Positions 2,855 to 41,265 of a DNA stretch of 43,121 nucleotides are shown piece by piece. The DNA is taken from the IMG/VR virus record IMGVR_UViG_3300045988_071163, positions 1-43,121 of that record. One strand, given 5' to 3'. The notes beneath the pieces are model-generated. The model was not told where the DNA came from. It did no database searches and worked only from the letters and a program-made list of their open reading frames with translations. The position numbers and the translations under genes were made by a program. The DNA comes from a virus. Each line of letters begins with the position of its first letter. Positions within the stretch are counted from its first letter, which is position 1.

Positions 2855-3730
2855 TTACATCTTAGTCCCTTTAAGAAGCCAATCCCATGTGTTCGTTCCC
2901 ACGATTCCGTCTTGCTTCAAGCCTCTATTCTTCTGGAATACTTTAACCGCTCTTTCTGTTCCACCGCCAAATTTTCCATCTGTTGATAATTTAAAACCAA
3001 CACTGTTCAAGCGTTCTTGGATTAACTTTGTAATATTTCCTTTCGCTCCTCGCTTAACCGTAACACAAGCGCTTAGCGTTTTTGGTCCTTTTAGTCCATC
3101 AACTTTTAATCCTTTGTCAAACTGATCGTTTAGTTCGCTCTGTAGTCTTGCGACCCAAGCATCATAGCCACTCTTTTGTGGCACTGGAGTATCTGCTTTT
3201 GGAATTGCCACAGGAGCGCCATTTAAGCGACTTTTAAATGCATTCCAAGTTGCATCGTTTAGTAGCCCGTTACAATTAGGACACGCTTTACCATTTACAT
3301 CATAATGACGGATGACATTTTTAATTGGAATATTGTATTTTTTCATCAATACCTTACCCAATTCGATTGCATTTTCAAGTGTCTTGTCAGTGATTTCAAC
3401 AACTCCATTTTTATAGCAATCGCACATTTCGATGCTGATAGAGTTGGCATTCTTACAGATATTATAGAGTGGGTGATGTTTAGACTGACATTTTCCCCCA
3501 ACCGAATACGCTGCATAGTTATCTGGTACTGACTGCGTTACGCTGTCATCATCCACAAAGTAATGTGCTGATGCCTTTACGATATGATTATGAAAATGCT
3601 TGCCATTACATTCGTCAGAATCGCCGTCGTTTCCAGTGTAGTGATAAACTAAATACTTAATAGTGTTTAACGCTCTGACACCACCATAGTTCTGCTTATT
3701 CGCAATATTGGTTTTTAATGTATATCCCAT
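2855..3730 (-). CDS. Endolysin: N-acetylmuramoyl-L-alanine amidase (Amidase_2/PGRP fold) with C-terminal PG_binding_1 repeats
   Basis: YHYTGNDGD...AHYFVDD...SISIEMCD...IRHYDVNGKACPN in the N-terminal part, then two LKVDGxxGPKT / LKQDGIVGTNTW peptidoglycan-binding motifs. Confidence 0.9.
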   Translation of the reverse strand: MGYTLKTNIANKQNYGGVRALNTIKYLVYHYTGNDGDSDECNGKHFHNHIVKASAHYFVDDDSVTQSVPDNYAAYSVGGKCQSKHHPLYNICKNANSISIEMCDCYKNGVVEITDKTLENAIELGKVLMKKYNIPIKNVIRHYDVNGKACPNCNGLLNDATWNAFKSRLNGAPVAIPKADTPVPQKSGYDAWVARLQSELNDQFDKGLKVDGLKGPKTLSACVTVKRGAKGNITKLIQERLNSVGFKLSTDGKFGGGTERAVKVFQKNRGLKQDGIVGTNTWDWLLKGTKM

Positions 3731-5272: not shown

Positions 5273-5932
5273 TTATGCTACTGACCAAGTACCAACAGTA
5301 TTCTTGACGAATACTTTGATAATCTTTTCGCCATCTCCACTAGAAGCAAGTTCGAGGTCTTTTCCGTAAATCTTGCAAGAGATTGCTGTGCTAGCCTTGA
5401 AAGTGCCAGTTGCGCTCATGTTTGTAGAACCATTTGCAGTGCCGATTAATGTGCCAGCATCATGCAATGACGATTTAGATGGTACGACTTTAATCTTATA
5501 TTCCGTAAACGCTACATCTGAAGTGAAACTGAAAGTTGCAACGTCTTTTGGCGATGTCTTAGAAATTCTAGATACATCTGGTCCGATGATAGTAACCGCT
5601 GGAACTGATGTGTCTAATGTGATACTAGTAGATGTTACTGCTGTTTCATTATAAACATCATCTCTAACTTTCACATATACAGTTTTCAGTCCATCTCCTG
5701 TTGGAAGAGTGATATCTTTAACGTTAGCGAGTGTTTCCCAAACTGCATCTGATTCCTTAGCAATTCCATCGATGCCCCATACTTTCATCTGATATCCGTC
5801 TGCGGATTCATCAGTCACATTAATTGCAAGTTGAACTGCTTTGCTTGTAGTATATTGAGACCCATTATTTAACTTGATAGTCAACCCCTGTGGAGCAAGA
5901 GTATCGAGTGTTAGATTGAAATAACTTGCCAT
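5273..5932 (-). CDS. Ig-like-domain protein (two beta-sandwich-like halves)
   Basis: LTLDTLAPQGLTI and LDTSVPAVTII are typical openings of bacterial Ig-like domains. GGAGAA RBS. Confidence 0.5.
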   Translation of the reverse strand: MASYFNLTLDTLAPQGLTIKLNNGSQYTTSKAVQLAINVTDESADGYQMKVWGIDGIAKESDAVWETLANVKDITLPTGDGLKTVYVKVRDDVYNETAVTSTSITLDTSVPAVTIIGPDVSRISKTSPKDVATFSFTSDVAFTEYKIKVVPSKSSLHDAGTLIGTANGSTNMSATGTFKASTAISCKIYGKDLELASSGDGEKIIKVFVKNTVGTWSVA

Positions 5933-5934
5933 GA

Positions 5935-6393
5935 TTATTCTCCTTTATTGATAGCCTGTTCAGCCACTTCTAAACCTTTTGTGAGGAAGACAGGCACATT
6001 GTCGCCTGCTTCTACAAAGTTCTCTAAGATACTGCGTAACTCATTAATAATTAATGATGCGATTGTAAACCAACCAATATAAGCAGTTACAGATAAGTCA
6101 ATTCCTAAAGTCTTACCAATCTCAATAAAAATCGCTGATGCGAGAAAAGCAACGAGTACCATTAACCAGTACCCCAACTTTTTCCATACACCACGCACTC
6201 CCTTGGCAGAATTATCCTTCCCCGTTAAACGTGACTTTCTAACTCCTGTGATGTAATCAATCACATTAAGAACTAGAAACCCAACAAATAACAGCCAATG
6301 AGTACCAAAAACTGCACTCAGTACTGCCACGATAGTTCCTCCTAATGCATTGATTGAATCCATATACTTTAATGATGTGTTGTATAATTTCAT
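5935..6393 (-). CDS. Holin (Phage_holin_4_1 / toxin-secretion holin family)
   Basis: 152 aa with multiple predicted TM segments. IDYITGV...KGxxKKLGYW...NELRSILEN is characteristic of this family. Confidence 0.8.
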   Translation of the reverse strand: MKLYNTSLKYMDSINALGGTIVAVLSAVFGTHWLLFVGFLVLNVIDYITGVRKSRLTGKDNSAKGVRGVWKKLGYWLMVLVAFLASAIFIEIGKTLGIDLSVTAYIGWFTIASLIINELRSILENFVEAGDNVPVFLTKGLEVAEQAINKGE

Positions 6394-23165: not shown

Positions 23166-24824
23166 TTAGCACGGTCTTTTGAATATTTCTTTTATCGTTC
23201 CATAGCCTCCGTACAGTCTGTCACACAACTGTGACAAGCTGTCGGGCGCATCGTCATGCTCGTTCTTGCCGAGTATCTTGAATGAGAACAGATTGTTCAT
23301 GAACATTGAATACTCCTTTGAGCGTTTGCCTGGCTCAAGGAAATAGAACTCTCTAATATCGGGCGCATTCTGAAATATACGCACCTCTTTTGCCTTTGTT
23401 GTCGGCGCACTGTGTGATGTTATGACACATTTGTAGCCAAGTCGTTCAAGTTCCTTCTCTACATCTTCAGCGTAGCCTTCACCACCATTATTCTTTTCGA
23501 CATCGCAGTCCTGTACACCCCACGAAGCGATTTTCTTCGCCACTTCCGGCTGCGTTATTCTCTTATCGCCGTTATTGAACACAACGTCTGGTATATATAC
23601 CGTTCCATCTGCATACTGATAGGCTATTGGAGCGCTCACGTAGTCACCGCCGCCCCAGGCAGTGTCTACCACGGTCAGTCTTCTGACTGGTTCCTCATTC
23701 GGCAGTATTCCGTTATAGAACTTCATATCTCCGCCGTTGAACAATGCGCCTTCACGTTCTACAGGCTCTCCCTGGTACTGTGCGAACCAGGATGCCATGT
23801 CATCGTTTCTCTCGAATGATGCCCTTCTCTGCTGATAGTATTCAGTAGAGAATCCAACGCCATAGTCATAGTCGAAATTGGATTCATCATTCTCATTGAG
23901 TGCTGGCAGATTCACAATCTTATACTTTCTTGACTTGAAGTTCGGATCATTCAATATAAGGTCCTGTCTTAGACCAGCCGGGTCAACAAGCGACCATCTA
24001 GTACCTATCCACAATACCTTGCTTCCCTGTTTAGCACGTGTGATGAGGTTGTTATCCACTAGTTTCCAAGTCTTGTACATACGCTCCGGATTGAGTGCTT
24101 CTTCGATACCGCCAATCAAGTCATCACCGATAAGCACGCCGTTACAGTCGCATGAACCATTCAGTGTTCCGTAGATAGAACGACATGTAAGTGTCGGATA
24201 TCTCTTCTTTCGCTCTAAATCCAGTGTGTTCAATCTAGAGTTCTGATTCACTATGACGGATGCTGGAAAAATCTCACTGTATGTATAGGTCATATTGTCA
24301 TTGATGATTTCATTTATACCTTCATAGAACGAATGCGTGATTGTATCGGAGAAACTGCTGTACAGATTCGTCTTCTCTGAATTGATTCCCATGAGCCATG
24401 TAAGAAAGAACATGATCAGTGTTGTCTTGCCTACTCGTGGCGGCATTGAAATAAACAGTTCCTGCAGGTTTCCGTCATGGAGGTCCTGCAGATCTTTTAC
24501 TACGGTTTTCAGTATCTTCATTCGAGGGCGGTAGAACTGCTCATTGACAGGTCTGTTTATCTCGAGATAGAGCATGTAGTCCTCGAACGAATAATGCGCC
24601 GTAAACAGGAATGTCTTCTTATACATCTGATACATGTTGTATCGTTCCTCGATATCCTTGCTTCTGTTGCTGTTTGCTTCAGCCAGTCTGTGCCTTAAGT
24701 CCTTGTTCAGATGTAAAAGCGTATCCTTGTCGTTCGTAGCATAGCAGTTCAGTACGATGTCATACTTGGCAGTAAGACTGTCAGTACTCTTGTACAGTTT
24801 CACTTTCTTCTTATCTATTGCCAT
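23166..24824 (-). CDS. terL: Terminase large subunit
   Basis: Walker A MPPRVGKTT and a C-terminal nuclease-like region. I chose the start at 24824 (MAIDKKK) because of the GAAGGAGGAAAT RBS. Confidence 0.9.
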   Translation of the reverse strand: MAIDKKKVKLYKSTDSLTAKYDIVLNCYATNDKDTLLHLNKDLRHRLAEANSNRSKDIEERYNMYQMYKKTFLFTAHYSFEDYMLYLEINRPVNEQFYRPRMKILKTVVKDLQDLHDGNLQELFISMPPRVGKTTLIMFFLTWLMGINSEKTNLYSSFSDTITHSFYEGINEIINDNMTYTYSEIFPASVIVNQNSRLNTLDLERKKRYPTLTCRSIYGTLNGSCDCNGVLIGDDLIGGIEEALNPERMYKTWKLVDNNLITRAKQGSKVLWIGTRWSLVDPAGLRQDLILNDPNFKSRKYKIVNLPALNENDESNFDYDYGVGFSTEYYQQRRASFERNDDMASWFAQYQGEPVEREGALFNGGDMKFYNGILPNEEPVRRLTVVDTAWGGGDYVSAPIAYQYADGTVYIPDVVFNNGDKRITQPEVAKKIASWGVQDCDVEKNNGGEGYAEDVEKELERLGYKCVITSHSAPTTKAKEVRIFQNAPDIREFYFLEPGKRSKEYSMFMNNLFSFKILGKNEHDDAPDSLSQLCDRLYGGYGTIKEIFKRPC

Positions 24825-24842
24825 ATTTCCTCCTTCATTGCA

Positions 24843-24881
24843 CAAAAAAAAGAGCCTACACCATATGTGGTGCATGGCTCT
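24843..24881 (-). terminator. Terminator directly after the recombinase gene and just upstream of the terL RBS
   Basis: agagcc..cacca tatg tggtg..ggctct compound hairpin, followed on the minus strand by U8. Confidence 0.65.
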
Positions 24882-25437
24882 AGGCTCTATGCTTATAATA
24901 CGTCGCTCTGCTCACATTGCACTGCTTGCAGGCATCTGTTATCGATACACCCTGTCTGACCAGGTTATCTACCTCTTCGATTGAGACAGTCGGTCTTCCA
25001 ATGCTCTTTCCTCTCTTGCGTGCAGCTTTGAGACCTTCAACGGTTCTCTCCACCATCATGTCATGCTCCTGCTGAGCGAGTGATGAAAGCACCTCGAGGA
25101 TTATGTTGTTTATCATCTCGATGATCCATTCCTGTCCGTCCAGTTCAATCATTGTTGTAGGCATATTAAGTATTCTTATTATGACACCCCTGTCTTGAAA
25201 GAATTTAATTTCATCTTTTATGAGTTGCTTGTTTCTTCCGAGTCTATCAAGTGCGTGGATGTATAGTTCATCCCCTTTTTTAATTATTTCCTTTAATTTG
25301 CAGTAGTTTGGTCTGTCGATTCTTGTGCCCGTGTACTTGTCACTGTAAATATAGTCTACATTGTATGAGCGCAGGCTGTCTATCTGTCTGTCGAGAGACT
25401 GCTTTCCTGTGCTCACTCGTGCGTAGCCGTATTTCAT
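24880..25437 (-). CDS. Small serine recombinase (resolvase/invertase family)
   Basis: 185 aa. MKYGYARVSTGKQSLDRQ catalytic N-terminus and a C-terminal HTH (ITDACKQCNVSRATYYKH). Confidence 0.9.
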   Translation of the reverse strand: MKYGYARVSTGKQSLDRQIDSLRSYNVDYIYSDKYTGTRIDRPNYCKLKEIIKKGDELYIHALDRLGRNKQLIKDEIKFFQDRGVIIRILNMPTTMIELDGQEWIIEMINNIILEVLSSLAQQEHDMMVERTVEGLKAARKRGKSIGRPTVSIEEVDNLVRQGVSITDACKQCNVSRATYYKHRA

Positions 25438-25706
25438 CGCTTGAATCTTCCTCTGTTGTCTTTTCTATCGGGCACTTCATCTAGTACGACTGTTCTTTCT
25501 GCTCTGTCATTGCCGCCTCGGGGTCTGATGATGATGTCGTAGTCGAGTTCGTTGCATATGTTGATTAGGATGCTGACCTTTGTGTCGCTTCTTCTAGATA
25601 TCTCACCTATACTTGCACCGCTCTTATATCCTAGTCTATCAGCAAGTCTTGCAAATGAGCTGTTATTGTCATCAATCATCTTTCTTAAGCATTCTTTTAA
25701 GTTCAT
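25434..25706 (-). CDS. HTH DNA-binding protein, translationally coupled to the recombinase
   Basis: 90 aa with SFARLADRLGYKSGASIGEISRR. ATGA overlap with the recombinase start. GGAGG RBS. Confidence 0.6.
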   Translation of the reverse strand: MNLKECLRKMIDDNNSSFARLADRLGYKSGASIGEISRRSDTKVSILINICNELDYDIIIRPRGGNDRAERTVVLDEVPDRKDNRGRFKR

Positions 25707-25726: not shown

Positions 25727-25755
25727 AGTATATCATTGCTCTCGGCATCTGTCAA
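25727..25755 (-). promoter_or_regulatory. Promoter TTGACA-N17-TATACT for the HTH-recombinase unit
   Basis: On the minus strand the -35 is at 25755..25750 and the -10 at 25732..25727. Confidence 0.65.
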
Positions 25756-25768
25756 CAATATTTATTGT
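25755..25768. promoter_or_regulatory. Palindrome ACAATA-tt-TATTGT abutting the -35; candidate operator or recombinase site
   Basis: Perfect 6-bp arms. ACAATAAAAA recurs at 25889..25898 and 25903..25912. Confidence 0.35.
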
Positions 25769-25926
25769 ATGGTCTTAAAATTAGGCCGTCGGTGGTAGCG
25801 GGGTTGAGCAGTATTGGTAAAACCATCAAAAAAATGGGGAGGGCGGGGGTATTAAAAAGATTATGTCTAAAAAACGAACGATTAAAAGACAATAAAAAAT
25901 ATACAATAAAAATTATTTATTATCTA

Positions 25927-25954
25927 TTGACATGAACAATATTTAATATATAAT
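25927..25954 (+). promoter_or_regulatory. Near-consensus promoter TTGACA-N16-TATAAT for the amidoligase operon
   Basis: -35 at 25927..25932 and -10 at 25949..25954, about 257 nt upstream of the ATG at 26211. Confidence 0.7.
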
Positions 25955-25960
25955 GATGGT

Positions 25961-25982
25961 GTAATCAATAAATGTTGATTAC
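25961..25982 (+). promoter_or_regulatory. 5'-proximal 8-bp perfect hairpin at the predicted transcript start
   Basis: gtaatcaa taaatg ttgattac. Confidence 0.45.
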
Positions 25983-26073
25983 TTGATAGTTCATTGACAA
26001 TTGAATACGTGAAAATCTCAAAAGGAAAAGAGAAACGTATATATACATATTGCTATGTATAGTATTAAAAATA

Positions 26074-26136
26074 AAAGAGATTAATTCACAACGTACCAAT
26101 CTATATATAGATGTACATATTAGAATTAATCTCTTT
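26074..26136 (+). promoter_or_regulatory. Long leader hairpin: 14-bp perfect inverted repeat enclosing a 14-bp palindrome
   Basis: aaagagattaattc (26074..26087) pairs with gaattaatctcttt (26123..26136). The inner palindrome atctatatatagat is at 26099..26112. Followed by TTTATATT. Confidence 0.5.
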
Positions 26137-26210
26137 ATATTAGTGCTATATGTTTTAGCCGACAAATAGCAACATGATTATATCATATGTTTTTCTTAAG
26201 GTAAAACATT

Positions 26211-27602
26211 ATGGATAATTTAGTAAAGTATTATGACCACAACGAATTTTCATTTATTTCTATGGAGACATTAGAACAATTAGAAGATGAATATTATATC
26301 GAATATTCTACTTTCGAAGATTGCTATATCAATAAAGATACCAGCGATTATGGTTATTGTGATAATGACCTTTTAACTAATGATACTATAGAAAATGGAG
26401 ATTATATTTATTGTGAAGATACAGAAGACTACCAACCAGAAGATTACACTGTTTATCTAACAGACAAAGAAACTTATGTATCAAAAGATTATGATTACTA
26501 TAAATGTGATGAATGCGGCGATTGTTTCAGCAGCGATTATGATATGCATTGTAGAAATGGCAACTATTATTGTGATACCTGTTGGGAAGATATGGAACCC
26601 GTTATTTATGATTACCATTGTTATCGTGATGGTTATTACCCTCGTTCTCTAGCACGTGAAAGCCCGTTATTTATGGGGTTTGAATTAGAAGTTGATGACG
26701 TGCGCGGCGATTGTGAAAGTTTAGCATCAAGCGTATTAGATGGTGATATGGATGACACATTACATTGTGAATATGATTGTACAGTTGCTTTTGAGTTTAT
26801 TTCCCAACCTTGCACATTGGAATATCACAAGAACCAACATTATAATGATTGGTTTTTCAGTGAATTAGATGGCAAGTGTGAAAGTCATGACGCTGGCACT
26901 TGTGGTTTACACGTGCACGTTAACAAGTCGTTTTTTAATGGCCGCGGTTATGACAGATTGAAAACAATCCTTTTCTTCTTTAAGGATGAATTATTTCAAT
27001 TTTCACGCCGTCAATATTGGGGTTATAGTTATAGCGACTTTGGGGAAAAAATCGGTAAAAGCAGCGTGACAATGCATAAAGCAAAAAACACCAAAGAATA
27101 CGGGCATTCTACATGGTTCAATGAAAACAATAGTTCTACTTATGAGTTTAGATTTTTCCGTGGTACATTGAAATATGAAACATTCATGGCAAGTCTTGAA
27201 TTAGTCCACAATATCTGCTTAGCTGCAATGAGTAATACAGATGTTATCACATGGGATTCATTGCTAGATGGTGATTATTGTAGAGAATATAGTAACTCAC
27301 GCGACATCTATTGCGATAGTGAATTAAATTTAGGTGAGTTAGAAAAGAAAGAAAACGAACTAATGCAAGTAATCAAAAAGGCTTTAAATGAAAATGCTTT
27401 TATCAATCTAAATCATGTTTGTGTTGGTGAAATTGTAGGAGATACAATCGTTTTCTATTGTCTCTATAACAATAACGGAGAACTACACAAACGCCGCCAG
27501 AACTATATTAATTTATCGGAGTTTGATACTTTTGAAACACATGGTTATTACTACTTATGTAATAGAAAAGAACTTTCTAACTTGTTAGGAGGTGAATTCT
27601 AA
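26211..27602 (+). CDS. Amidoligase_2-family (glutamine-synthetase/GCS2-like COOH-NH2 ligase) protein with an acidic Tyr/Cys-rich N-terminal extension
   Basis: Motif series GFELEVDD ... CEYDCTVAFEFISQPCTL ... TCGLHVHVNK ... TYEFRFFRGTL. CDECGDC...CDTC zinc-ribbon-like motif in the N-terminal 150 aa. Confidence 0.8.
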   Translation: MDNLVKYYDHNEFSFISMETLEQLEDEYYIEYSTFEDCYINKDTSDYGYCDNDLLTNDTIENGDYIYCEDTEDYQPEDYTVYLTDKETYVSKDYDYYKCDECGDCFSSDYDMHCRNGNYYCDTCWEDMEPVIYDYHCYRDGYYPRSLARESPLFMGFELEVDDVRGDCESLASSVLDGDMDDTLHCEYDCTVAFEFISQPCTLEYHKNQHYNDWFFSELDGKCESHDAGTCGLHVHVNKSFFNGRGYDRLKTILFFFKDELFQFSRRQYWGYSYSDFGEKIGKSSVTMHKAKNTKEYGHSTWFNENNSSTYEFRFFRGTLKYETFMASLELVHNICLAAMSNTDVITWDSLLDGDYCREYSNSRDIYCDSELNLGELEKKENELMQVIKKALNENAFINLNHVCVGEIVGDTIVFYCLYNNNGELHKRRQNYINLSEFDTFETHGYYYLCNRKELSNLLGGEF

Positions 27603-28468
27603 TGTGTATTATTGCAATCAAACCAGCTCATCACAAAATGATTGATGAAAGCATCATAGAAACAATGTTTGATACCAACCCCGACGGCGCGGGTTATATG
27701 TACGCTTATAACAATAGAGTACATATTAATAAAGGTTTCATGACATTAAAAGAATTGTTAAATAGTCTTGATAAACTGAAAAAGAAAATTAATATTGATA
27801 AAATACCTTTAATCTTACATTTTCGTATTTCCACTAGTGGGAAAACAGATGGCGCCACTTGCCATCCTTTTCCTGTCACTAGTGACCTAAACGCTTTACG
27901 AAAAACACACCTTATAACCAACTTAGGAATGGCACACAATGGGATTATTAGTGACTTTGAGGAAAAGAAAAGTATCTATAGTGATACACAATTATTTGTG
28001 AATAAGTGTGTATCATATCTCTATGATATGAACCCTAAATTCTTACACGATGATAGAACGAAAAAGCTGCTAGAACCTATTATAAATGGTTCGCGCCTGG
28101 CGTTCTTAGACAGTCACGGCAATATATACCAATATGGCGATTGGATCGAAAGCGATGGTATCTATTATAGCAATGAGGGCTATATCCCATGGCAATCACG
28201 TTATTATCATTATAACGATGCTTATTATAGTAAGTATTATTATGGTGATGATTATTATTACTATGGTGATGAGGACCAGGAACTAAAAATTTTAGAGAAA
28301 TTAGAAGCCTATGAGGAAATAACAAATTATGAAGATATCTGTTATATTCGTACAATGTATGATATAGTAGAAGAAAGCGGCAACACTGAAATTTATGACG
28401 TAATGGGAATGTTTGTCAAGGTGGACCCAGTCGCAAGCCGTGCTATTCGTATAGAGGGGGTTGACTAA
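27602..28468 (+). CDS. Class-II (Ntn) glutamine amidotransferase-like / thiol peptidase-like protein with a Tyr-rich C-terminal extension
   Basis: MCIIA (Cys2), NPDGAGY, LHFRISTSG, CHPF and MAHNGII. TAATG overlap with the upstream gene. GGAGGTG RBS. Confidence 0.8.
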   Translation: MCIIAIKPAHHKMIDESIIETMFDTNPDGAGYMYAYNNRVHINKGFMTLKELLNSLDKLKKKINIDKIPLILHFRISTSGKTDGATCHPFPVTSDLNALRKTHLITNLGMAHNGIISDFEEKKSIYSDTQLFVNKCVSYLYDMNPKFLHDDRTKKLLEPIINGSRLAFLDSHGNIYQYGDWIESDGIYYSNEGYIPWQSRYYHYNDAYYSKYYYGDDYYYYGDEDQELKILEKLEAYEEITNYEDICYIRTMYDIVEESGNTEIYDVMGMFVKVDPVASRAIRIEGVD

Positions 28469-28612
28469 TTGCTTAGATTATTGATTTATTTGTGTTTCTT
28501 TCCGTTGTGGTTGATATGGTGGTTTATTAAAGCAGTTTTCTTCTTTATGTCATGGTTGGAAATCTGCTTACTTAGTTTCAATGGTAAGAGAATTATAAAA
28601 AGAAGATGGTAA
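28469..28612 (+). CDS. Possible 47-aa hydrophobic membrane peptide (TTG start), not in the ORF track
   Basis: LLRLLIYLCFFPLWLIWWFIKAVFFFMSWLEICLLSFNGKRIIKRRW. It starts directly after the upstream stop, with GAGGGGG 10 nt upstream, and ends inside the operon terminator. Confidence 0.4.
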   Translation: MLRLLIYLCFFPLWLIWWFIKAVFFFMSWLEICLLSFNGKRIIKRRW

Positions 28613-28626
28613 CATCTTCTTTTTTG
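28601..28626 (+). terminator. Rho-independent terminator of the amidoligase operon
   Basis: agaagatg gtaa catcttct 8-bp perfect stem followed by T6. Confidence 0.75.
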
Positions 28627-28660
28627 TCGTTCATAAACATTTAATGATCATAAGTAAATA

Positions 28661-28905
28661 AGCGTTTTAAGCGTTCTAAGAGACTTTTATATAATGGTGA
28701 TATAAATATACCATAACCACATAAACAACGCTTAGAATTGAAATGTGGGCTATTTATATAATGCAGCTCATACACACAAATTCGTACATATAAACTACAG
28801 GGCTTTAAATAGCCCTTTTAAGCGTGTTTAATCATATCGTGATATAATTATCATCTTTCATATAAACGTGTCTTAGAATTGAAATATAGCCTATTTAAGG
28901 CTATA
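28661..28905 (+). repeat. Two imperfect tandem units of ~142-151 bp, each with ttttaagcgt, gtgatataa, cttagaattgaaat and ctattta blocks
   Basis: The block pairs are 28665/28816, 28697/28839 and 28731/28872. Each unit has a TATAAT-like element and a short hairpin (28799..28816; 28886..28904). Confidence 0.6.
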
Positions 28906-28906
28906 G

Positions 28907-28947
28907 GCGCATGTAATCTATACCATGAGCGCACGTAATCTATACCA
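28907..28947 (+). repeat. Two 19-bp direct repeats gcgca[t/c]gtaatctatacca at 22-bp phasing
   Basis: 28907..28925 and 28929..28947 differ at one position. A third partial copy, atctataca, is at 28971..28979. Confidence 0.8.
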
Positions 28948-29000
28948 ATATAAGCATAGAACTACAAAAAATCTATACACAAGAAAAATGGAAAAAATAC

Positions 29001-29075: not shown

Positions 29076-29108
29076 AAAAAGGTGAGCATAAAACGCTCAC
29101 CTTTTTTT
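29076..29108. terminator. Bidirectional terminator overlapping the terS stop
   Basis: aggtgagc ataaaac gctcacct 8-bp stem, with A5 on the left and T7 on the right. Confidence 0.75.
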
Positions 29109-29589
29109 ATTTCTCTTCAAAATCTGCATCTATAACAACGGCAGAAATTTCCTTTTCAATCTGTTCAATTGACTTGCTTTCAGAAACCATGTGATGAATC
29201 TTCACATCCTGGTTATCTCTATAGCCGAAATTGGATTTCAGCAGGAATACAGAAGCATTTCTATCCATAGTTCCTTGAAGTGCTCCTTGTTCAAGGTTAT
29301 CAGCCATCAGATTCAGCATCTGTGAGAGAAAAATCGTTGTTTCATGATTAGGTCTTTCAGCAATCCATCTATTGACCGTATCTGGTGAAACTCCAAGACA
29401 AACACAGAGTCCTCTCAAAGTAGGAATTCTGTTGTTTTCATCGCAGTAAGTGAGATATTCATAACTTCTGTCCTTGATTACATCGAAATCGTTGATTGTC
29501 GCTCTTTTTAACTTGAGCATCTCTCTTGCACGTGCGACAGGCAGTTTGCTTTCACCTATCTCGTTGTAGTCGAACTTCTTCTTCGCCAT
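29107..29589 (-). CDS. terS: Terminase small subunit
   Basis: HTH GLCVCLGVSPDTVNRW and FLLKSNFGYRD are typical of TerS. I chose the start at 29589 (MAKKKF) because of the GGAGG RBS. Confidence 0.8.
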   Translation of the reverse strand: MAKKKFDYNEIGESKLPVARAREMLKLKRATINDFDVIKDRSYEYLTYCDENNRIPTLRGLCVCLGVSPDTVNRWIAERPNHETTIFLSQMLNLMADNLEQGALQGTMDRNASVFLLKSNFGYRDNQDVKIHHMVSESKSIEQIEKEISAVVIDADFEEK

Positions 29590-29849
29590 TTTTTTACCTC
29601 CAAAAAATCGAAATTCCAAAAAAAAATTGACAAAATAATTGACCGATGGTCAGATTCAACCCCCTTCCCTCATGTGTCACATTCACACATCCCCCCCGGC
29701 AAAAAAATCGCACACACACAAGGGGGATGGGTAGTCTGTATATGCATCCGAGGGGGATTTGGGGGTTTTTAACCCCTTTTCCTATACTCCATATATATAA
29801 ATACATATATACCTCTTTTATATTCTCTATACTATTTACTTATATATAA

Positions 29850-30036: not shown

Positions 30037-32493
30037 CTACTTTTTCACCAAAAACCACTGCTTATGAATCACCTTCAATTCACAATGGTGTGTTTCTGTT
30101 CCGTCGAAATAAGCGATTGCCCCTTTCAGATTCTTGTAGAAGGTGTTTCTGCCGGCAACTCGGTATCTACATTCATCACACCATTCAGTGTACATCTCAT
30201 ACACTCTGTTTGCTCTCATTGATGTAAGAGTCATGCCGTCATCGACCCAGTCGAACTCATTGAGGAACTCGATAACATGATTACTCTCGATAGCGAACTC
30301 GTATTCCAAGTCCTTGTCCTCATCTATCTCATTGAACTTGTAGCCATTCTCAATCAGTCTGACATAACCATCAATGCTCCATCGCAATACTGCTGGCAGT
30401 ACATCATCACTTGTTAGGAGGGCATCTAATCCCGGTATTGCCTTGAATACATGAATATCATCCACTCTTGATTCATCTGATGTGAATGTATTGGCGAACT
30501 TGTGCTTCGTACCCTCGAATCTTCTGAGCCATCCGCCGTTTGACTTGTTTGCACGTGGCAGTTCGTTGCAGTCAATGAATATCTTGCATCTAGGCTTGAA
30601 TTCGATACGTGGTTTGCCCTTCACATCTGTGGATATGACATCGTTCGATGTGATCGCCTTGAAGATTGGCTCTGCCTCCTTGATATCGCTTGTCGCTTCA
30701 TGACAGAAATTAACATACTTGCCTAATAACTGTAACGTGTCAAAGCGTCCGCCAAGACGGCTCAACTCTAATGTACTGCATAATTTTCCGTCGCCTAGCA
30801 GTGCACTCAGCACCTTTGTCAGTACGCTCTTTCCATTGCTTCCAGTTCCATAGAACAGGTATGCCTTGTCTTGTATGCTGTGTTCCATGAACACCGAGCC
30901 GAAGTATTCTGCAAATCGTTTGATTAACTTCTCATCACTACTTGTGATGCTGTTCAAGAAATCATCCCAATCTTGGCTGTATGCATTTTCTCTGTATTCA
31001 TAGTTGAGTACATAATCATTGAAGTCATCTGGGTTACGCTTGCTAGAGAACCTGTAATATCCATCGAACGGATTCTCCGTGAAGTAAAGCGTACCATTCT
31101 TGAGGTTCAGACAGTTCACTTGGTTTGGTAGGGTATCATCATATACGATAGTTCTGACCTTGTTCAGTATCGCTGATTCGAGATTATACGATACATCGAA
31201 CATCTCCATGATTCCCTGTCTGATGAGTGCATCATCACATCTGCTCCAGTACGTGCCGTTGAAACGGTAGAAGCCGAGTGATGGATTGCATCTTAATTTA
31301 TAGTCATAGTTGGCAATAAACTCGTGAGCATATTCATCGTTTGTCTTGCCTCTCGTCAGTTCCCTTCGTATTTCCTTCATTTCCTCACCGTCAGCGCCTA
31401 AAACTTCCTTGGCATACTGCAATATGGCTTTCTTCTTAACACGGCTCATATAAGGGCTGTGCGCACTGTAGACATATTCCATCAGTTCATCTATATCAGA
31501 CATGGTAGTCTTCAGATACCATAGTGTGCCGTCCACTGCATGCTTTTCTAAGAGTTCGCTAGGTAGAACGCCTGCGCAGTAACAGTCGCTCACATCCTTA
31601 CCGTACTCTCTAGGGATGTTGACTATGTCGAACGGAATATTGTGTGCGAATAACTGCTTTGCAGTCGCTATAGTGAACTGCACACCTCTTCCATCGTTGT
31701 CGTAGCAGATAGCCACACGCTTGAATTTCTTGGCAATCTTGCATAGATATTCTGTCTGCTTATTTGAAAGTCTTGTGGCGCTCGATAGAACTCTATACCC
31801 TTCTTGATAGAAAGTTAAGAAGTCAAACACTCCTTCTGCAATGACGATTGTATCATTGTTGATATAAGTCTCGCTTCTGTTAAGCGTGTCAAGACCATAA
31901 AGCGTATTCTCTTTGAATGCTTCCTCTAGATATGGTTTTTTGTATTTAACGACATCATACTGGCTTCTGTTTCTAGCGCAGTAGTAAACGCAGTTGTTGT
32001 TCTTGAATACAGGAATGATGATACGTGGTACATCTACCATTTCACCATTAGGCGCTTTCTCCTTGAATGTGTGGCTTCCTATGTACAGATTATTGATGGT
32101 ACTGTCAGTTATCTTTCTCTGATGTAGATAATCTATATCATCATCCGTAAGGTCATTATGCCATTGCAGTATTGCATTATTCCATTCTCTATAGTTCTGC
32201 TTGTATTCTGTATCGTTGAACGCCAGATTAAATCGACTGCACATATCCTTGAACGCCATAGACTTATCACCTTCATACTTTGCATATGCAAGCATGTCTG
32301 TGACATCGCCACCGACACCATCACTGAATGAGAACCACGAGTCCTCGCTCACCATAACACTGTTAGGATTCTGGCCATCATGGATAAAAGAGGGGCAACG
32401 ATATGTGCCCCCGTTCTTGTGCAGTTCTATGCCCAGTTCTGTAGCAAGTTCAACGCAGTTTATATTCTGTTTTATTTCGTCATACAACTTCAT
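30037..32493 (-). CDS. Bifunctional DNA primase / SF3 helicase (CHC2 zinc finger, Toprim, D5/P4-type P-loop)
   Basis: CPSFIHDGQNPNS zinc finger, a Toprim-like IVIAEGVFD...YDNDGRG, and Walker A GTGSNGKSV. Confidence 0.85.
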   Translation of the reverse strand: MKLYDEIKQNINCVELATELGIELHKNGGTYRCPSFIHDGQNPNSVMVSEDSWFSFSDGVGGDVTDMLAYAKYEGDKSMAFKDMCSRFNLAFNDTEYKQNYREWNNAILQWHNDLTDDDIDYLHQRKITDSTINNLYIGSHTFKEKAPNGEMVDVPRIIIPVFKNNNCVYYCARNRSQYDVVKYKKPYLEEAFKENTLYGLDTLNRSETYINNDTIVIAEGVFDFLTFYQEGYRVLSSATRLSNKQTEYLCKIAKKFKRVAICYDNDGRGVQFTIATAKQLFAHNIPFDIVNIPREYGKDVSDCYCAGVLPSELLEKHAVDGTLWYLKTTMSDIDELMEYVYSAHSPYMSRVKKKAILQYAKEVLGADGEEMKEIRRELTRGKTNDEYAHEFIANYDYKLRCNPSLGFYRFNGTYWSRCDDALIRQGIMEMFDVSYNLESAILNKVRTIVYDDTLPNQVNCLNLKNGTLYFTENPFDGYYRFSSKRNPDDFNDYVLNYEYRENAYSQDWDDFLNSITSSDEKLIKRFAEYFGSVFMEHSIQDKAYLFYGTGSNGKSVLTKVLSALLGDGKLCSTLELSRLGGRFDTLQLLGKYVNFCHEATSDIKEAEPIFKAITSNDVISTDVKGKPRIEFKPRCKIFIDCNELPRANKSNGGWLRRFEGTKHKFANTFTSDESRVDDIHVFKAIPGLDALLTSDDVLPAVLRWSIDGYVRLIENGYKFNEIDEDKDLEYEFAIESNHVIEFLNEFDWVDDGMTLTSMRANRVYEMYTEWCDECRYRVAGRNTFYKNLKGAIAYFDGTETHHCELKVIHKQWFLVKK

Positions 32494-33082
32494 AATAATC
32501 AATATCCTTTCCTATGAATTCCTTATATTTCTCCACATCTAAGACATCACTTAACTGTATCTCCCCTCTATCAAGTTGCTCTCCTAGCCTTTTAAGTTGC
32601 GCCACTTCTCCATTCTTTGCATATAGCATATTGTTTGGATAGCATTTCTTTCTGAATAGGAAATACATGGCTCGTCTATACTGTTTGAAGTCGCAGTCGC
32701 TCGCAACCCATACATGATAGTTCATCTTGGCGAAGATATACCAGTATCTTCTGAATGCCTTCTTGTTAAGGTAATAATCGAGTGTATGCCTTGTTACATC
32801 TGGTTCGTTCGTGAAGAAGAATTCATTTATCTCATAAATCGTGCCTTCGAAGACAACTTCGTTTGTTGTCTTGTCTACTACTATTCTATCTCTAGCGAAT
32901 GTCTGCGTTATAGGTAATCTGAGTTCTTTTCTGATGTAATTCGGATATGAACCGTATTTTCTCTTGAAATACAGTTCCTTTACTCCTAGACTCTTAAGTT
33001 CCTCTATATATGGTGGTCTATGCTTCTGCTTATAGAAATCCAGTATGATCTTTCTGTATAGTTCACCTCTGTAATCACTCAT
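32480..33082 (-). CDS. Hypothetical protein
   Basis: 200-aa ORF, same strand, tightly packed. Confidence 0.55.
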   Translation of the reverse strand: MSDYRGELYRKIILDFYKQKHRPPYIEELKSLGVKELYFKRKYGSYPNYIRKELRLPITQTFARDRIVVDKTTNEVVFEGTIYEINEFFFTNEPDVTRHTLDYYLNKKAFRRYWYIFAKMNYHVWVASDCDFKQYRRAMYFLFRKKCYPNNMLYAKNGEVAQLKRLGEQLDRGEIQLSDVLDVEKYKEFIGKDIDYYEVV

Positions 33083-34501: not shown

Positions 34502-34668
34502 TCTATTCCCTCCTGTTCTATAGGATATAGAGTTAGTATCGCATATTGTTCCTGTGCATACGCTCTATACCCTATGATTCTATATTTGTTTCTTAGTTCA
34601 TCGATTGCATCTCCTAGTTGTCTCATTGAATAATAATCAACTTTTTTGTAGATGTATTTTGCACTCAC
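34498..34668 (-). CDS. Small ORF (56 aa; GTG start) coupled to the MazF-like gene upstream and to the next gene downstream
   Basis: GTGA overlap with the MazF-like stop and ATGA overlap with the next start. Product: VSAKYIYKKVDYYSMRQLGDAIDELRNKYRIIGYRAYAQEQYAILTLYPIEQEGIE. Confidence 0.4.
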   Translation of the reverse strand: MSAKYIYKKVDYYSMRQLGDAIDELRNKYRIIGYRAYAQEQYAILTLYPIEQEGIE

Positions 34669-35177
34669 CCAATCACCTTTTCTAATAAGTTCTCATACAG
34701 TTTCTTGTACATATCTCTTTCAGCAGTAAGTTGGATATTCTCCTGCATTGAGGCCAACTCCATATCCTTGATAGGCGCAGATGGTTCTGGAGCATTAATA
34801 GATACCGTAGATACCGTATCTGTGCCCATACCTAGAGAGTGTCTTAATCCACGTTCGATATTCTTCATCTCTTCATCGCTTACAGTTCTTACATAAGTGC
34901 CGATTCTATCCTTATAAACGGTATGGATGGTTTCGCAGAGGGCAGTAGATGGACTCTTGCAGAATACATCAGCATGAGTAGGCATATCTCTCTTAATTTT
35001 TGTTGTAAGATAGACAGCCTCAACATATTCGCTTCCTCTGTTCAGATGGTCATCTGATACGATTACAGCAGGTCTTCCTGCCGTATCACATGAATATGAA
35101 TCATTGAAATTCTTAGAATATGTGATATAGAAGATATCTCCTCTTTTAACTTCTTTTGGGTTTAAACTATAGTTCAT
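34665..35177 (-). CDS. MazF/PemK/EndoA-like endoribonuclease-fold protein with a ~55-aa C-terminal extension
   Basis: VKRGDIFYI...AGRPAVIVSDDHLNRGSEYVEAVYLTTKIKRDMPTHADV...VSDEEMKNIERGLRHSLGM aligns by eye along B. subtilis EndoA. AAGGAG RBS 7 nt before the ATG at 35177. Confidence 0.75.
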   Translation of the reverse strand: MNYSLNPKEVKRGDIFYITYSKNFNDSYSCDTAGRPAVIVSDDHLNRGSEYVEAVYLTTKIKRDMPTHADVFCKSPSTALCETIHTVYKDRIGTYVRTVSDEEMKNIERGLRHSLGMGTDTVSTVSINAPEPSAPIKDMELASMQENIQLTAERDMYKKLYENLLEKVIG

Positions 35178-35275
35178 AATATTTCTCCTTAATTTATTCT
35201 TTCCAAAAAAATCCAATAGCAATAAGTATGATTGCACCTGCCATGAGCAGAATGCCTATGATATCCATAATTGCA

Positions 35276-37962: not shown

Positions 37963-38298
37963 TTATCTCACCACCTTTTTAAGTGCTCTATCCACTTCTC
38001 GATTTATTTTGAATTTCTGCCATTCTATGACTTTATCGATATCCAAGTACCCTAGAGAAACCAACTCAACGATACAGATTAATACATCAGCAACCTCTTC
38101 GTGCAGATTACGTTCATACACGCCACGGAACCCATGTCTTTTGACTTTTGACATTGCCTGGATTAACTCTGCGCATTCTTCCGATGCAATAGTGAGAGTT
38201 AAATCATCGCCATTAAGATGCGCCACTTTGTCCAATTCAAGTATTCTGCTTTGTGGGAGTTTTAATAATTCCACCAATCTACTTATTTCTTTATACAT
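37963..38298 (-). CDS. MazG-like nucleotide pyrophosphohydrolase
   Basis: ASEECAELIQAMSK ... LHEEVADVLICIVEL (EExxE / ExxD helices). The start at 38298 overlaps the upstream stop (ATGTATAA) and follows AGGAGAAG. Confidence 0.7.
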   Translation of the reverse strand: MYKEISRLVELLKLPQSRILELDKVAHLNGDDLTLTIASEECAELIQAMSKVKRHGFRGVYERNLHEEVADVLICIVELVSLGYLDIDKVIEWQKFKINREVDRALKKVVR

Positions 38299-38917
38299 TC
38301 TTTTCTTCTCCTGTAATGAGTTCTGCATTAGGTAATCTTTCAATCCATTTACAGAAATCTTTCCATTCATCCAACTTGTGATTTCTGCGAGTTTCATAGA
38401 TATTCAACAGATTCTCGTAGTTCATAGTTACTGTTCTCTTTTGGTTGTAAGAAGAAGGCAGTAACTGAATCATCTGCCACCAGTTATCCTTACTATGGTC
38501 TTGGATATAAAGCTGTCTAAAAAAATTCAAACAACTTATGATATCTTTGAATGGCTTATTGAGCACATCATCGTTCAAATGTTCAACGCTGAAATCATCA
38601 AGCGTGAACTCCTTGTCGTGAATCTTATGCATTGTGCTACATGAATTGGGAGTAATTCCGATTTTGTAAGTGTCGAACTGCTTCCACCAATAAAGCGGTG
38701 CAGTGATATCAACACTCACAAAAATCTGTCTTAAGAATTTTCTATGACTAGGACCTGCATGAACTAATCTCTTCATTAGTTCCTTATCTTTTTTACCTAG
38801 TAAAACCAGGTCATAATCAACAAAAGTATCGCTTTTATCCCAACTGTTCATAGGGTTTCGCATACCTCTAACAGCGTGCTCAAATCCCCAAATATCTGCA
38901 TATTTTAAAGTAATCAT
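38291..38917 (-). CDS. ThyX (flavin-dependent thymidylate synthase)-like protein, divergent at the canonical motif
   Basis: Collinear by eye with ThyX (KDKEL..., F.V.I.AP..., LPSSY...N...L.N....R). TYKIGITPNSCSTMH replaces RHRxxSxxxxSxRY. Confidence 0.55.
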   Translation of the reverse strand: MITLKYADIWGFEHAVRGMRNPMNSWDKSDTFVDYDLVLLGKKDKELMKRLVHAGPSHRKFLRQIFVSVDITAPLYWWKQFDTYKIGITPNSCSTMHKIHDKEFTLDDFSVEHLNDDVLNKPFKDIISCLNFFRQLYIQDHSKDNWWQMIQLLPSSYNQKRTVTMNYENLLNIYETRRNHKLDEWKDFCKWIERLPNAELITGEEKNV

Positions 38918-39464: not shown

Positions 39465-39639
39465 TCGTGTCCTCCTCTAATTTATATATCTTGAATTTCT
39501 TATTTCCTTTGATTGACAATTTTGTGTAGAAATGATGAAGAGACACACCAAGATAGCACGCACACTCTTGAGCGTTTCCAACGCAGACACACATATCTTC
39601 TGCATCATAGATGGCATATTGATTCTTTTTCTTTCTCAA
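39457..39639 (-). CDS. Small hypothetical protein
   Basis: 60-aa ORF within the operon. Confidence 0.4.
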   Translation of the reverse strand: MRKKKNQYAIYDAEDMCVCVGNAQECACYLGVSLHHFYTKLSIKGNKKFKIYKLEEDTNE

Positions 39640-39949
39640 TCGCTATGACCTTTTCTATGTCTTCTACGCTTCTTACGACATATACTCTATGATTTATTGA
39701 TTTCAGAAATGCGTGGTAATCTTCTTGAGCCTTTCTTAATCTGCTACCTTTTTTCTCTGTTTTCATTTCTACCCAGAATACTTGCCCATCATCCTTCAGA
39801 ACTAATAAATCTGGCGTTCCTTCAATACCTACTTTTATAGGATTTAAGGTCTTTGTGTAATAAGTCCCAACAACCATTCGATATGGCGTGAAACCTGCTT
39901 GTGACAGTTCAACCATCACTTTATTTTGAATAATATGTTCTAACTGCAT
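39605..39949 (-). CDS. VRR-NUC domain nuclease
   Basis: GTPDLLVLKDDGQVFWVEMKTEKKGSRLRKAQ. I chose the start at 39949 because of the GAAGGGGA RBS. Confidence 0.75.
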   Translation of the reverse strand: MQLEHIIQNKVMVELSQAGFTPYRMVVGTYYTKTLNPIKVGIEGTPDLLVLKDDGQVFWVEMKTEKKGSRLRKAQEDYHAFLKSINHRVYVVRSVEDIEKVIAIEKEKESICHL

Positions 39950-41265
39950 ATCCCCTTCAACCTCATTTGGACATGTACCCATGCAACAGAGTACCCACGT
40001 TCTCTAGCAATTCTCATAAGTTCATCACGACTTCTCGCACGTCCAACTTCCATCCTCATCTCTTTTTTCTTTCTGTTTAATTCTTCGACTTCTTGCTCTT
40101 TCACTGCTTTTAATTTGACATCTTCCATCTGCTTCAGTTCTCTACCCTTGACTTCATATTCATATCCGCAGTAAGGACACTTATCGGCAGTCTTGAATAC
40201 CTTGAAGCACTGTGGACATGTACGAATAGAAAATGACCCATCGTCATTTATCATTTTCTTTTTCTTTGCACCGTCTAAAGACCATTCTCTGTCACTTGTT
40301 GGCAGACCGTGTCTCTGAAAGTTTCCTACATAATCGATGATGACTGCCTTCTTTCCTTCTTTTGGAGTAAGACATCTCATTGACTGCTGAATGTACAGAG
40401 CGAGCGACATTGTTGGCCTGAGCAGTAAGCAGCACTCGCAGTCCGGAACCGTAATTCCTTCACTGATCAGTCCTACATTGCATAGTATTTTGAATCTGCC
40501 CTGTTTGAAATCGTTCATGACTTTTTCACGTTCACTCGATGGTGTGTGACTGTCTAGATGAACAGCACTCACGCCGTTCGAAATAAACAGGTCTCTAACT
40601 TTCTTGCTATGCTCTATAGATACGCAATAAGCAATGGCTTGCTTGCTATCAGCAAGTTCCTTGTAATACTTGAAAATATCGCCATAGACGCAGTTTTTAG
40701 TGAATAGGTCTTGTAGTTCGCACGTACGATAATCGCCCCTTGCAATTGATAAATCAGTTGTATCGATGCCGATATTAGGTGCATAGTAGTCATAATTGCT
40801 GATTGCTCCTTGCTCAATTAATTCATTGGCCGTTATTCCCTGCACGATACAGTCGAACAGTGATAATCTGTCACCGTTCAATCGCGTAGGTGTTGCAGTG
40901 AACCCAACCACAAGTACATCGTAGTGGCTACATACTTTCTTGTAACTGCTCGCTTCACTTAGATGACATTCATCAATGAAAATGACCGATGGTTTTTCAC
41001 GCTCGTCTAAATGATTGGCTTCCGTAAAGACACTCGCAACTCTAGCGTTTGTTATGCTTAACTCATTAAGCAATGCTTTGTGTTGCTTCATCAGTTCTTT
41101 TCTATGAACCAGTACCAAGCCATAACCTTTTAGGTTTTTTATCATCTCAGCCATAAGAAACGACTTGCCACTTCGGCAAGGCATCTGAATAAGTATTCCT
41201 CTCTTGCCTTGCCTAATGGTTTCTATCGTCTTTATGTATAGGTCTTCTTGATAATCCCTTAACAT
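39940..41265 (-). CDS. SF2 DEAD/DEAH-box helicase with a C-terminal zinc ribbon
   Basis: PCRSGKS (Walker A), FIDECH (motif II), TATPTR, and CPQC...CPYC. Confidence 0.85.
   Translation of the reverse strand: MLRDYQEDLYIKTIETIRQGKRGILIQMPCRSGKSFLMAEMIKNLKGYGLVLVHRKELMKQHKALLNELSITNARVASVFTEANHLDEREKPSVIFIDECHLSEASSYKKVCSHYDVLVVGFTATPTRLNGDRLSLFDCIVQGITANELIEQGAISNYDYYAPNIGIDTTDLSIARGDYRTCELQDLFTKNCVYGDIFKYYKELADSKQAIAYCVSIEHSKKVRDLFISNGVSAVHLDSHTPSSEREKVMNDFKQGRFKILCNVGLISEGITVPDCECCLLLRPTMSLALYIQQSMRCLTPKEGKKAVIIDYVGNFQRHGLPTSDREWSLDGAKKKKMINDDGSFSIRTCPQCFKVFKTADKCPYCGYEYEVKGRELKQMEDVKLKAVKEQEVEELNRKKKEMRMEVGRARSRDELMRIARERGYSVAWVHVQMRLKGICS

Follow-up and report, generated by a model that had tools for sequence, protein, structure and literature searches.

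The stretch of DNA analysed here (the window) covers positions 1 to 43,121 of IMG/VR record IMGVR_UViG_3300045988_071163 (43,121 nt), which represents a temperate siphophage or prophage, and carries on its plus strand a three-gene operon encoding an amidoligase of 463 aa (26211..27602), an N-terminal nucleophile (Ntn) class-II glutamine amidotransferase (GAT)-type protein of 288 aa beginning with MCIIA (27602..28468), and a micro membrane protein of 47 aa with a TTG start codon (28469..28612). All three open reading frames (ORFs) reported in a first-pass annotation of this DNA were recovered, as were the motifs quoted there, with GFELEV, EYDCTVAFEFISQP, TCGLHVHV and TYEFRFFRGT in the 463-aa protein and MCIIA, NPDGAGY, HFRISTSG, CHPF and AHNGII in the 288-aa protein. 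The ligase and GAT genes share a TAATG stop/start overlap (27600-27604), and a GGAGGTG ribosome binding site (RBS, 27589-27595) lies 6 nt upstream of the GAT ATG; both elements (27589..27604, plus strand) were read directly from the sequence and show, at the level of such signals, the translational coupling that had been claimed for the two genes. Overlapping or near-abutting ligase/GAT junctions were also present in the related loci L001, L002 and L004, in OM43 phage MEP402 and in many distant loci, while the first base of the micro-ORF is the base directly following the GAT stop codon. The ratio of nonsynonymous to synonymous polymorphism (pN/pS) was 0.22 for the ligase, 0.12 for the GAT and 0.30 for the micro-ORF (pS 0.28-0.42), and the three ORFs appear to be real, conserved genes under purifying selection.

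The operon is placed between the small terminase gene (terS) and a block of helix-turn-helix (HTH) protein, resolvase and large terminase (terL) genes, in the orientation opposite to both, and the same placement was found in L001, L002, L004, L039, L040 and L041, of which the ligases are merely 39-59% identical to that of the window. With its own promoter and terminator the operon has a moron-like position, and its G+C content is 33.7% versus 38.3% for the whole window. Downstream, a terminator-like hairpin followed by a U-run (AAGAAGAUG-GUAA-CAUCUUCUU, 28600..28625, plus strand, dG -16.5 kcal/mol, z -4.4) has the stop codon of the micro-ORF within its loop, and the same hairpin was seen in the relative L022. 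A terminator had been described here as strong, and the hairpin with its U-run agrees with a terminator, but it is AT-rich and was not picked up by a simple terminator scan, and "strong" was an overstatement.

The first gene is predicted to encode an ATP-dependent carboxylate-amine ligase with the glutamine synthetase (GS)/GCS2 fold, belonging to the Amidoligase_2 family. This assignment, which was proposed previously, is upheld because of transitive homology, fold and invariant residues, and not because of the direct Pfam score, as the match to Amidoligase_2 (PF12224) was below threshold (19.4 bits versus a cut-off of 22, E 1.1e-3, residues 180-264 only). There are hundreds of homologues, the more distant of which (E 1e-25 to 1e-60) carry PF12224; this domain was matched by 32/34 aligned homologues (E below 0.01), and PHROG 16683 matches at E 9e-33. 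Residues invariant in the 34 sequences were G156-E158-L159-E160, D189, E195, S225-H226, C231-G232-L233-H234-x-H236, R266-R267, N304 and T310-x-E312-F313-R314-x-x-R317-G318-T319, and we infer that the conserved Glu, Asp, His and Arg residues correspond to the GS ligands for metal, ATP and acyl-phosphate chemistry. The AlphaFold (AF2) model had a predicted local distance difference test score (pLDDT) of 90.4, and its top Foldseek matches in the PDB were YbdK/GCS2 (1tt4, 1r8g), Dop (9cku, 7oxy) and gamma-glutamylmethylamide synthetase (9qur), with a probability of 0.98-1.0 at 10-15% sequence identity. In BFVD there were 41 matches to the model at E <= 1e-3, most of the named ones being phage amidoligases, with those of tf, CW02 and Tesla among them. 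What YbdK, gamma-glutamylmethylamide synthetase and Dop have in common is that they form or cleave amide bonds at the glutamate gamma-carboxylate.

The protein consists of an N-terminal domain (residues 1-140), the GS/GCS2-fold core (residues ~150-394) and a small C-terminal beta domain. The N-terminal domain is very acidic and Tyr/Asp-rich (isoelectric point (pI) 4.05), and retains one zinc-ribbon-like Cys cluster (C99, C102, C121, C124). The N-termini of relatives carry between two and four LIM-type zinc fingers, and a search of solved structures with the ligase sequence profile returned only LIM zinc fingers, matching this domain, which appears to be a degenerate LIM-type zinc-finger domain that has lost most of its Cys residues.

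The second gene is predicted to encode a stand-alone Ntn class-II glutamine-amidotransferase-type domain, with no fused synthase domain in the protein. The family was again assigned because of transitive homology, fold and catalytic residues and not because of a direct Pfam score, with the direct matches under cut-off (GATase_6 14.1 versus 27 bits, GATase_4 12.2 versus 23 bits) and GATase_4 being matched by 15/29 homologues (E below 0.01, best 2.4e-9). The Pfam matches anticipated for the two enzymes were obtained with their homologues (PF12224 and GATase_4), but direct scores were below the curated cut-offs for both, and scans of the three operon proteins with NCBIfam, PADLOC and Pfam gave sub-threshold Pfam matches or nothing. 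M1 and C2 were invariant in 29-32 GAT sequences, and the other invariant positions were N26, G29, G31, K44-G45, F74, I76, T78, H88-P89, H112-N113-G114 and D128-T129, with R75 nearly so. Residues 1-195 had a block-mean pLDDT of 85-98, and Foldseek matched this glutaminase fold to the glutaminase domains of GFAT-1, GlmS and PurF (probability 1.0, E down to 2e-7), while a search of solved structures with the GAT sequence profile gave just a weak GlmS match. The acidic domain has a pI of 4.19, and beyond residue 195 come a linker rich in Tyr and Asp and a small C-terminal region, with the last 90 residues modelled at low confidence.

In GlmS and PurF, catalysis depends on a nucleophilic Cys and an oxyanion Asn-Gly pair, with Arg and Asp holding the free alpha-carboxylate and alpha-amino groups of glutamine. 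Profile alignment to GlmS (1xff) placed FRIxTxG and HNGII in register with TRWATHG and HNGII, with R75 and N113-G114 aligned to GlmS R73 and N98-G99, and on our own reading D128 would correspond to D123 in the SETD segment of GlmS; C2, R75, N113-G114 and D128 are thus all kept in the alignment of the GAT homologues and GlmS. Because these GlmS/PurF-type residues are kept, the protein may be made for glutamine or for a gamma-glutamyl amide with a free glutamyl head, and would be suited to free-glutamyl gamma-amides and not to internal peptide bonds. The description of this protein as either a class-II GAT or a thiol peptidase can be narrowed accordingly: C2, the Ntn fold and the catalytic residues agree with the former, whereas the retained residues for binding a free gamma-glutamyl group argue against a general thiol peptidase.

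The GAT subfamily has relatives encoded on 278 IMG/VR stretches, and the GAT profile was used to obtain a sample of 52 distant viral loci from IMG/VR, with GAT identities of 36-48%. An amidoligase homologue was located 5′ of the GAT gene on the same strand in 52/52 of these loci, and in 41 of the 50 loci with both ORFs scored the gap between the genes was <=141 nt, several pairs overlapping. By this comparison the ligase and GAT genes are shown as an obligate gene pair, although the proposed triad did not extend as far, with the micro-ORF present in just 4/49 loci. The pair is also found in mycobacteriophage Marvin (gp105/gp106), in OM43 phage MEP402 (gp06/gp07, overlapping), where it sits among early or replication genes, and in a Christensenellales phage. 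The window proteins match pairs of the Marvin/MEP402 type by tblastn, Pfam and fold, and the window locus is closest to this type of pair. It shares with the pairs of Marvin and MEP401/402 the same two families and the ligase-then-GAT order, often with overlapping genes, but differs in the additional 47-aa membrane protein, the loss of most zinc-finger Cys residues, and its position, flanked by terS and terL in a temperate phage of Firmicutes, with an operator-controlled promoter and a conserved leader.

Two variant arrangements were observed. In phage C75C1 (OQ984151.1; L060 4001-4897), the GAT-II N-domain is fused to a GGACT/AIG2 gamma-glutamylamine cyclotransferase, in a gene lying four small genes downstream of an amidoligase, and this domain fusion points to gamma-glutamyl amides as substrates. 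In some prophages (L007 6001-10167, L124 and L133) two amidoligases flank the GAT, the gene order being amidoligase, GAT, a 91-aa protein and another amidoligase, the last bearing several zinc fingers; in L007 these genes lie close to an integrase and to a restriction-alleviation gene of the Lar type.

In the 47-aa product of the third gene (pI 10.45), residues 1-37 are hydrophobic and the C-terminal tail, KRIIKRRW, is basic. The small membrane ORF reported after the GAT gene is indeed present and conserved, being kept in 28/28 close relatives with a pN/pS of 0.30 at pS 0.40 (22 distinct alleles). Its start (28466-28471; L012-L038) varies: an ATG that overlaps the GAT stop codon (TAATG) alternates with a TTG directly behind that codon (TAATTG), the two forms differing by a 1-nt indel with the frame kept. 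Analogous but non-identical single-pass micro-ORFs occupy the same spot in L004/L087, L040, L039 and L100, and only three database homologues were found, one of these from Catenibacterium mitsuokai. We rejected the micro-ORF as a general third component, given its absence from most distant loci, and it rather appears to be a clade-specific third component with a single membrane pass. A role as holin was also rejected, since a canonical holin (5935-6393) and an endolysin are encoded elsewhere in the window.

Transcription of the operon is predicted to start from a sigma-70-type promoter (TTGACA-16 nt-TATAAT, 25927..25954, plus strand, 12/12 consensus), 257 nt upstream of the ligase ATG. Alignment of the 512 nt 5′ of the ligase ATG from 25 distinct loci showed conservation of the -35 and -10 hexamers, with a variable spacer. 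Three operator-like sites were recognised around the promoter (25901..25982) from this alignment and from co-variation with the HTH protein: one upstream of the -35 hexamer (25901-25923), one in the promoter spacer (ACAATATTTAAT, 25936-25947), and a 22-nt palindrome (GTAATCAATAAATGTTGATTAC, 25961-25982) at approximately +1 to +22; mean pairwise divergence of the operator region was 37%. A leftward promoter is located on the minus strand (25755-25727), with another operator-like palindrome (ACAATATTTATTGT, 25755..25768) abutting its -35 on the upstream side, and this palindrome changes in step with the plus-strand operators, lineage by lineage.

The 90-aa HTH-like protein (25434-25706, minus strand) is encoded by the first gene of the leftward HTH-resolvase-terminase operon, and while it has no Pfam match of its own, a syntenic protein in L002 has a faint HTH_3 match. 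Over ~30 loci, at least 8 classes could be told apart in which the central segment of the 90-aa protein (GYKSGASIGEISRRSDTKV in the window) and the operator palindromes vary together, which is strong comparative evidence that the protein would bind the operators and can shut the operon promoter, and makes it the probable cognate repressor of the amidoligase operon. The site at its own promoter could allow for autoregulation in either direction. Together, the HTH gene and operators resemble an immunity-type switch, placed mid-genome and far from the integrase. The earlier description of a near-consensus promoter is correct with respect to its sequence, but this promoter is unlikely to be free-running, with operators overlapping it and a structured leader following; since the HTH operators overlap the promoter, the operon may be either on or off in the lysogen.

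Between promoter and ligase gene lies a conserved 5′ leader of 227 nt (25984..26210, plus strand), with a hairpin (~26028-26197) followed by an AAGG RBS (26198-26201). Mean pairwise divergence of the leader was 2.7% versus 16-18% for the coding sequence, making it approximately six times more conserved, and it folds into a long imperfect hairpin (minimum free energy -55 to -63 kcal/mol, z ~-6). The diverged leaders of L002 and L039 also fold into long hairpins (z ~-5) with different sequences, while RNAalifold predicted no pairs on a non-structural (MAFFT) alignment of the diverged leaders. The reverse strand folds about equally well or better in 4/5 lineages, so that the constraint may act on RNA or on DNA. 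A known riboswitch or T-box was rejected, as Rfam returned no family for the leader at E up to 1, and a pattern scan of IMG/VR detected the leader motif in these same phages only. Further upstream, between the divergent promoters, there is a G-rich non-coding element of ~125 nt (25775-25900, CCGTCGGTGGTAGCGGGGTTGAG...GGGGAGGGCGGGGGTAT...ACGAACGATTAAAAGACA), which is recognisable in relatives with ligase identities of merely 39-55% and has an internal segment that alternates between versions; this element may represent a small RNA, or else a site for protein binding or for packaging.

Several cellular pathways pair a ligase with an amidohydrolase, such as EgtA/EgtC (ergothioneine), PuuA/PuuD (putrescine), GmaS with N-methylglutamate synthase, and PafA/Dop (pupylation). 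The window operon resembles EgtA/EgtC, PuuA/PuuD and PafA/Dop in pairing a same-fold ligase with an enzyme that would cleave gamma-glutamyl amides, and Dop, YbdK and GmaS were the best structural matches to the window ligase, although the likeness is at the level of fold only and the window encodes no Pup-like tag or pathway partner. For phages, Amidoligase_2 and GAT-II pairs were reportedly predicted by Iyer, Abhiman, Burroughs and Aravind in 2009 (Mol Biosyst 5:1636). The literature searched treats the phage amidoligase/GAT pair as a hypothesis derived from Iyer et al. 2009 (PMC3890496, PMC5498523, PMC10580990, PMC11318856, PMC11706807, PMC10945688), in agreement with the first-pass annotation, which regarded the pair as known from computation only, and contains no assay. 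Its status as an exotic system holds in so far as no experimental characterisation was found, but the pair is widely annotated, for instance in phiEco32, LUZ24-like phages, RIO-1, Marvin and OM43 phages. Prophages with an amidoligase and a gamma-glutamyl cyclotransferase (GGCT) have also been described (PMC11318856).

The podovirus "peptidoglycan modification cassette" (phiEco32, RIO-1, PSA-HP1, LUZ24, PaP3, tf and CW02) consists of seven genes, among them those for GGCT, GAT, two amidoligases and an ATP-grasp enzyme (PMC5498523), and has been proposed to modify the envelope and prevent superinfection (PMC5498523, PMC3890496). It has Amidoligase_2 and class-II GAT proteins in common with the three-gene window operon, and the amidoligases of tf and CW02 are fold matches of the window ligase; however, these phages are lytic and express the cassette early, whereas the window phage is temperate. 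The two systems are distinguished by their gene content: the operon, its flanks and the 30 other window ORFs scanned yielded neither an ATP-grasp enzyme nor GGCT nor another amidoligase, some small ORFs lying outside that scan. No LUZ24-like phages were among the tblastn matches to the window ligase or GAT, and the LUZ24-type GAT is much longer than that of the window (486 aa (PMC3890496) versus 288 aa). In MurT/GatD and AsnB-type systems, a carboxylate of the stem peptide is activated with ATP while glutamine is hydrolysed, at the face of the membrane (PMC3267633), but MurT has a Mur-ligase fold and GatD is a class-I (triad) glutaminase, without homology to the window proteins. Elements that are new in the window locus appear to be the clade-specific micro-protein, the operators at the promoter that co-vary with the HTH protein and the highly conserved leader, and its further particulars are the putative degenerate zinc-finger domain and the fixed inter-terminase position.

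The reading we favour, albeit tentatively and at somewhat below an even chance, is that the two enzymes work together on gamma-glutamyl-type amides, one making them and the other cleaving (or transferring) them. The ligase would build such an amide on an amine-bearing target, and the N-terminal Cys of the Ntn enzyme would attack the gamma-amide of a substrate with free glutamyl alpha-amino and alpha-carboxylate groups (glutamine or a gamma-glutamyl-amine), thus cleaving or transferring the amide made by the ligase, with both enzymes acting as an obligate pair and probably as a complex. Stand-alone class-II domains are typically hydrolases, as exemplified by EgtC. We favour this reading because of that property, the fold relatives of the ligase, the residues for a free glutamyl head in the GAT, and the pairings and fusions with cyclotransferases. 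The micro-protein, with its basic tail in the cytoplasm, may place the very acidic enzymes at the membrane, in which case the target would most likely be an envelope precursor (an amine or carboxylate of the peptidoglycan stem peptide) or a membrane-proximal protein, and the pay-off could be superinfection exclusion or host takeover. Expression would proceed from the sigma-70 promoter, closable by the phage-specific HTH protein, on an mRNA that opens with the structured leader. Whereas we infer the gamma-glutamyl chemistry and complex formation, the target and phenotype are speculative: an envelope target and superinfection exclusion are suggested because of the micro-protein and the published hypotheses, and a protein partner because of the zinc fingers of the relatives.

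Several observations weigh against this interpretation. The glutamine-binding residues fit a plain glutaminase, acting as ammonia donor, equally well, and if ligase and hydrolase both acted on one bond, the result would be a futile cycle unless there is an intermediate step or partner, neither of which is visible in the operon. As most of the distant loci lack the micro-ORF, membrane tethering cannot be essential to the core chemistry; furthermore, no envelope-related gene was linked to the operon, and the LIM-type zinc fingers of the relatives point more to a protein or nucleic-acid partner than to a lipid-linked precursor. The relative L035 carries a disrupted GAT gene, suggesting that the module is dispensable, and the literature searched gives no substrate, assay or gene-level phenotype for the pair. 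In L035 (IMGVR_UViG_3300045988_071633, ~5390-5900) the GAT is interrupted by an internal deletion or frameshift past residue ~125 while the ligase is intact, which is either a decaying module or an assembly error.

Next in line, possible but distinctly less probable, is a two-subunit glutamine-dependent amidotransferase, in which the ligase would phosphorylate a carboxylate other than that of glutamate and the Ntn subunit would channel ammonia from glutamine to give a carboxamide on a metabolite, peptidoglycan stem peptide or protein, analogous to MurT/GatD and AsnB-type amidation. The full set of glutamine-binding and oxyanion residues is conserved in the GAT and the GS-fold ATP and metal motifs are kept in the ligase, while translational coupling and 52/52 co-occurrence are typical of heteromeric amidotransferases, and a membrane micro-protein would suit a lipid-II-type substrate. 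To our knowledge, however, no GS/GCS2-fold enzyme draws ammonia from a partner glutaminase, and ammonia-donating class-II domains usually share one polypeptide with their synthase, with stand-alone domains of the EgtC type being hydrolases. Relatives moreover pair or fuse the GAT with gamma-glutamyl cyclotransferases, which are unable to supply ammonia.

A function in defence or counter-defence is unlikely, whereby the pair would make or destroy a small amide-linked signal or toxin, or tag a protein of a competing phage or of host immunity. Such a function would agree with the position of the pair among early or replication genes in lytic relatives (MEP402), the Lar-type restriction-alleviation gene beside it in prophage L007, and the moron-like position of the operon with its own promoter and terminator and a phage-specific switch. 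Against this, there was no match in PADLOC-DB 2.0 for the three operon proteins, the HTH protein or the resolvase, and no sensor or effector is linked to the operon; we also know of no immune signal with an obvious gamma-glutamyl amide. Slightly more doubtful still is a self-contained, switch-controlled system for tagging proteins or the envelope, a minimal phage-encoded analogue of pupylation and depupylation, in which the ligase would add gamma-linked glutamate to the amines of lysine or diamino acids in a target close to the membrane, the Ntn enzyme would erase it, the micro-protein would dock the enzymes and the leader RNA would act as sensor; were this so, the leader might be a new cis-regulatory RNA sensing the state of the system.

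Hypermodification of DNA or nucleotides, with an amino acid or amide added to a modified phage base, is improbable. The operon does sit between terS and terL, some phages have the pair close to replication genes, and the zinc-finger N-domains of the relatives could bind nucleic acid. The scanned window ORFs, on the other hand, were without Pfam matches to a base hydroxymethylase, modified-DNA kinase or glycosylase-type transferase, the operon is read from a host-type promoter and against the direction of every replication and packaging gene, and a membrane micro-protein has no obvious role in such a pathway. We consider least probable an auxiliary metabolic pair boosting nitrogen, glutamine or glutathione metabolism of the host, as suggested for Phage-ZRK32, which encodes glutathione synthase and GGCT besides amidoligase and GAT and was reported to stimulate growth with nitrate or ammonium (PMC10945688), as that study left the genes themselves outside its tests, the window proteins are merely fold-level relatives of housekeeping GS, GCS and GlmS, and phage-specific extra domains and a repressible promoter argue against it.

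Phage amidoligase/GAT modules are now routinely labelled as auxiliary metabolic genes ("AMGs"), "peptidoglycan modification" or "superinfection exclusion" genes. The finding of such a module is unsurprising to the specialist, yet it provides a compact and well-delimited entry to a question that, in the literature searched, has stood since 2009, with two enzymes, a micro membrane protein, promoter, operators, regulator and leader in a genetically tractable locus of phages from an abundant group of the human gut, the Erysipelotrichaceae. Solving this locus would give a function to a large viral protein family, and would show whether gamma-glutamyl-type amide chemistry of phages acts on the envelope, proteins or metabolites.

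The host is likely to be a gut member of the Erysipelotrichaceae, since named homologues are from Holdemanella porci and Catenibacterium, and the operon is an accessory module of a temperate siphophage of this family (Holdemanella/Catenibacterium). One relative of the locus is embedded in a bacterial contig of 471 kb, while megablast of the locus against GenBank phages gave no match. Other features of the window are a tyrosine integrase (1338-2471, plus strand) and, all on the minus strand, an endolysin (2855-3730), the holin (5935-6393), the large terminase (23166-24875), a 185-aa serine recombinase (24880-25437), the small terminase (29107-29619), a primase-helicase (30037-32502), a PemK/MazF toxin (34665-35237), a MazG nucleotide pyrophosphohydrolase (37963-38397), a VRR-NUC nuclease (39605-39982) and an SNF2-type helicase (39940-41265). 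The serine recombinase has a Resolvase domain with HTH_7 and is invertase-sized, and its gene is directly upstream of the large terminase gene, a position kept in all related phages; inversion of the operon or its promoter by this recombinase was dropped, as no convincing flanking inverted repeats were found. The PemK/MazF toxin and MazG genes are in the early region of the phage, and PemK toxin genes were also present in relatives L001 and L004.

The region between the operon terminator and terS (28655-28950) contains two copies of a ~100-nt unit (28655-28756 and 28806-28897), located ~142 nt apart and ~72-85% identical over matched stretches, as well as a tandem 19-nt repeat (GCGCAYGTAATCTATACCA, 28907-28947). 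The repeats may mark a pac or terS-related site or serve in regulation, and similar sequence is present in L022.

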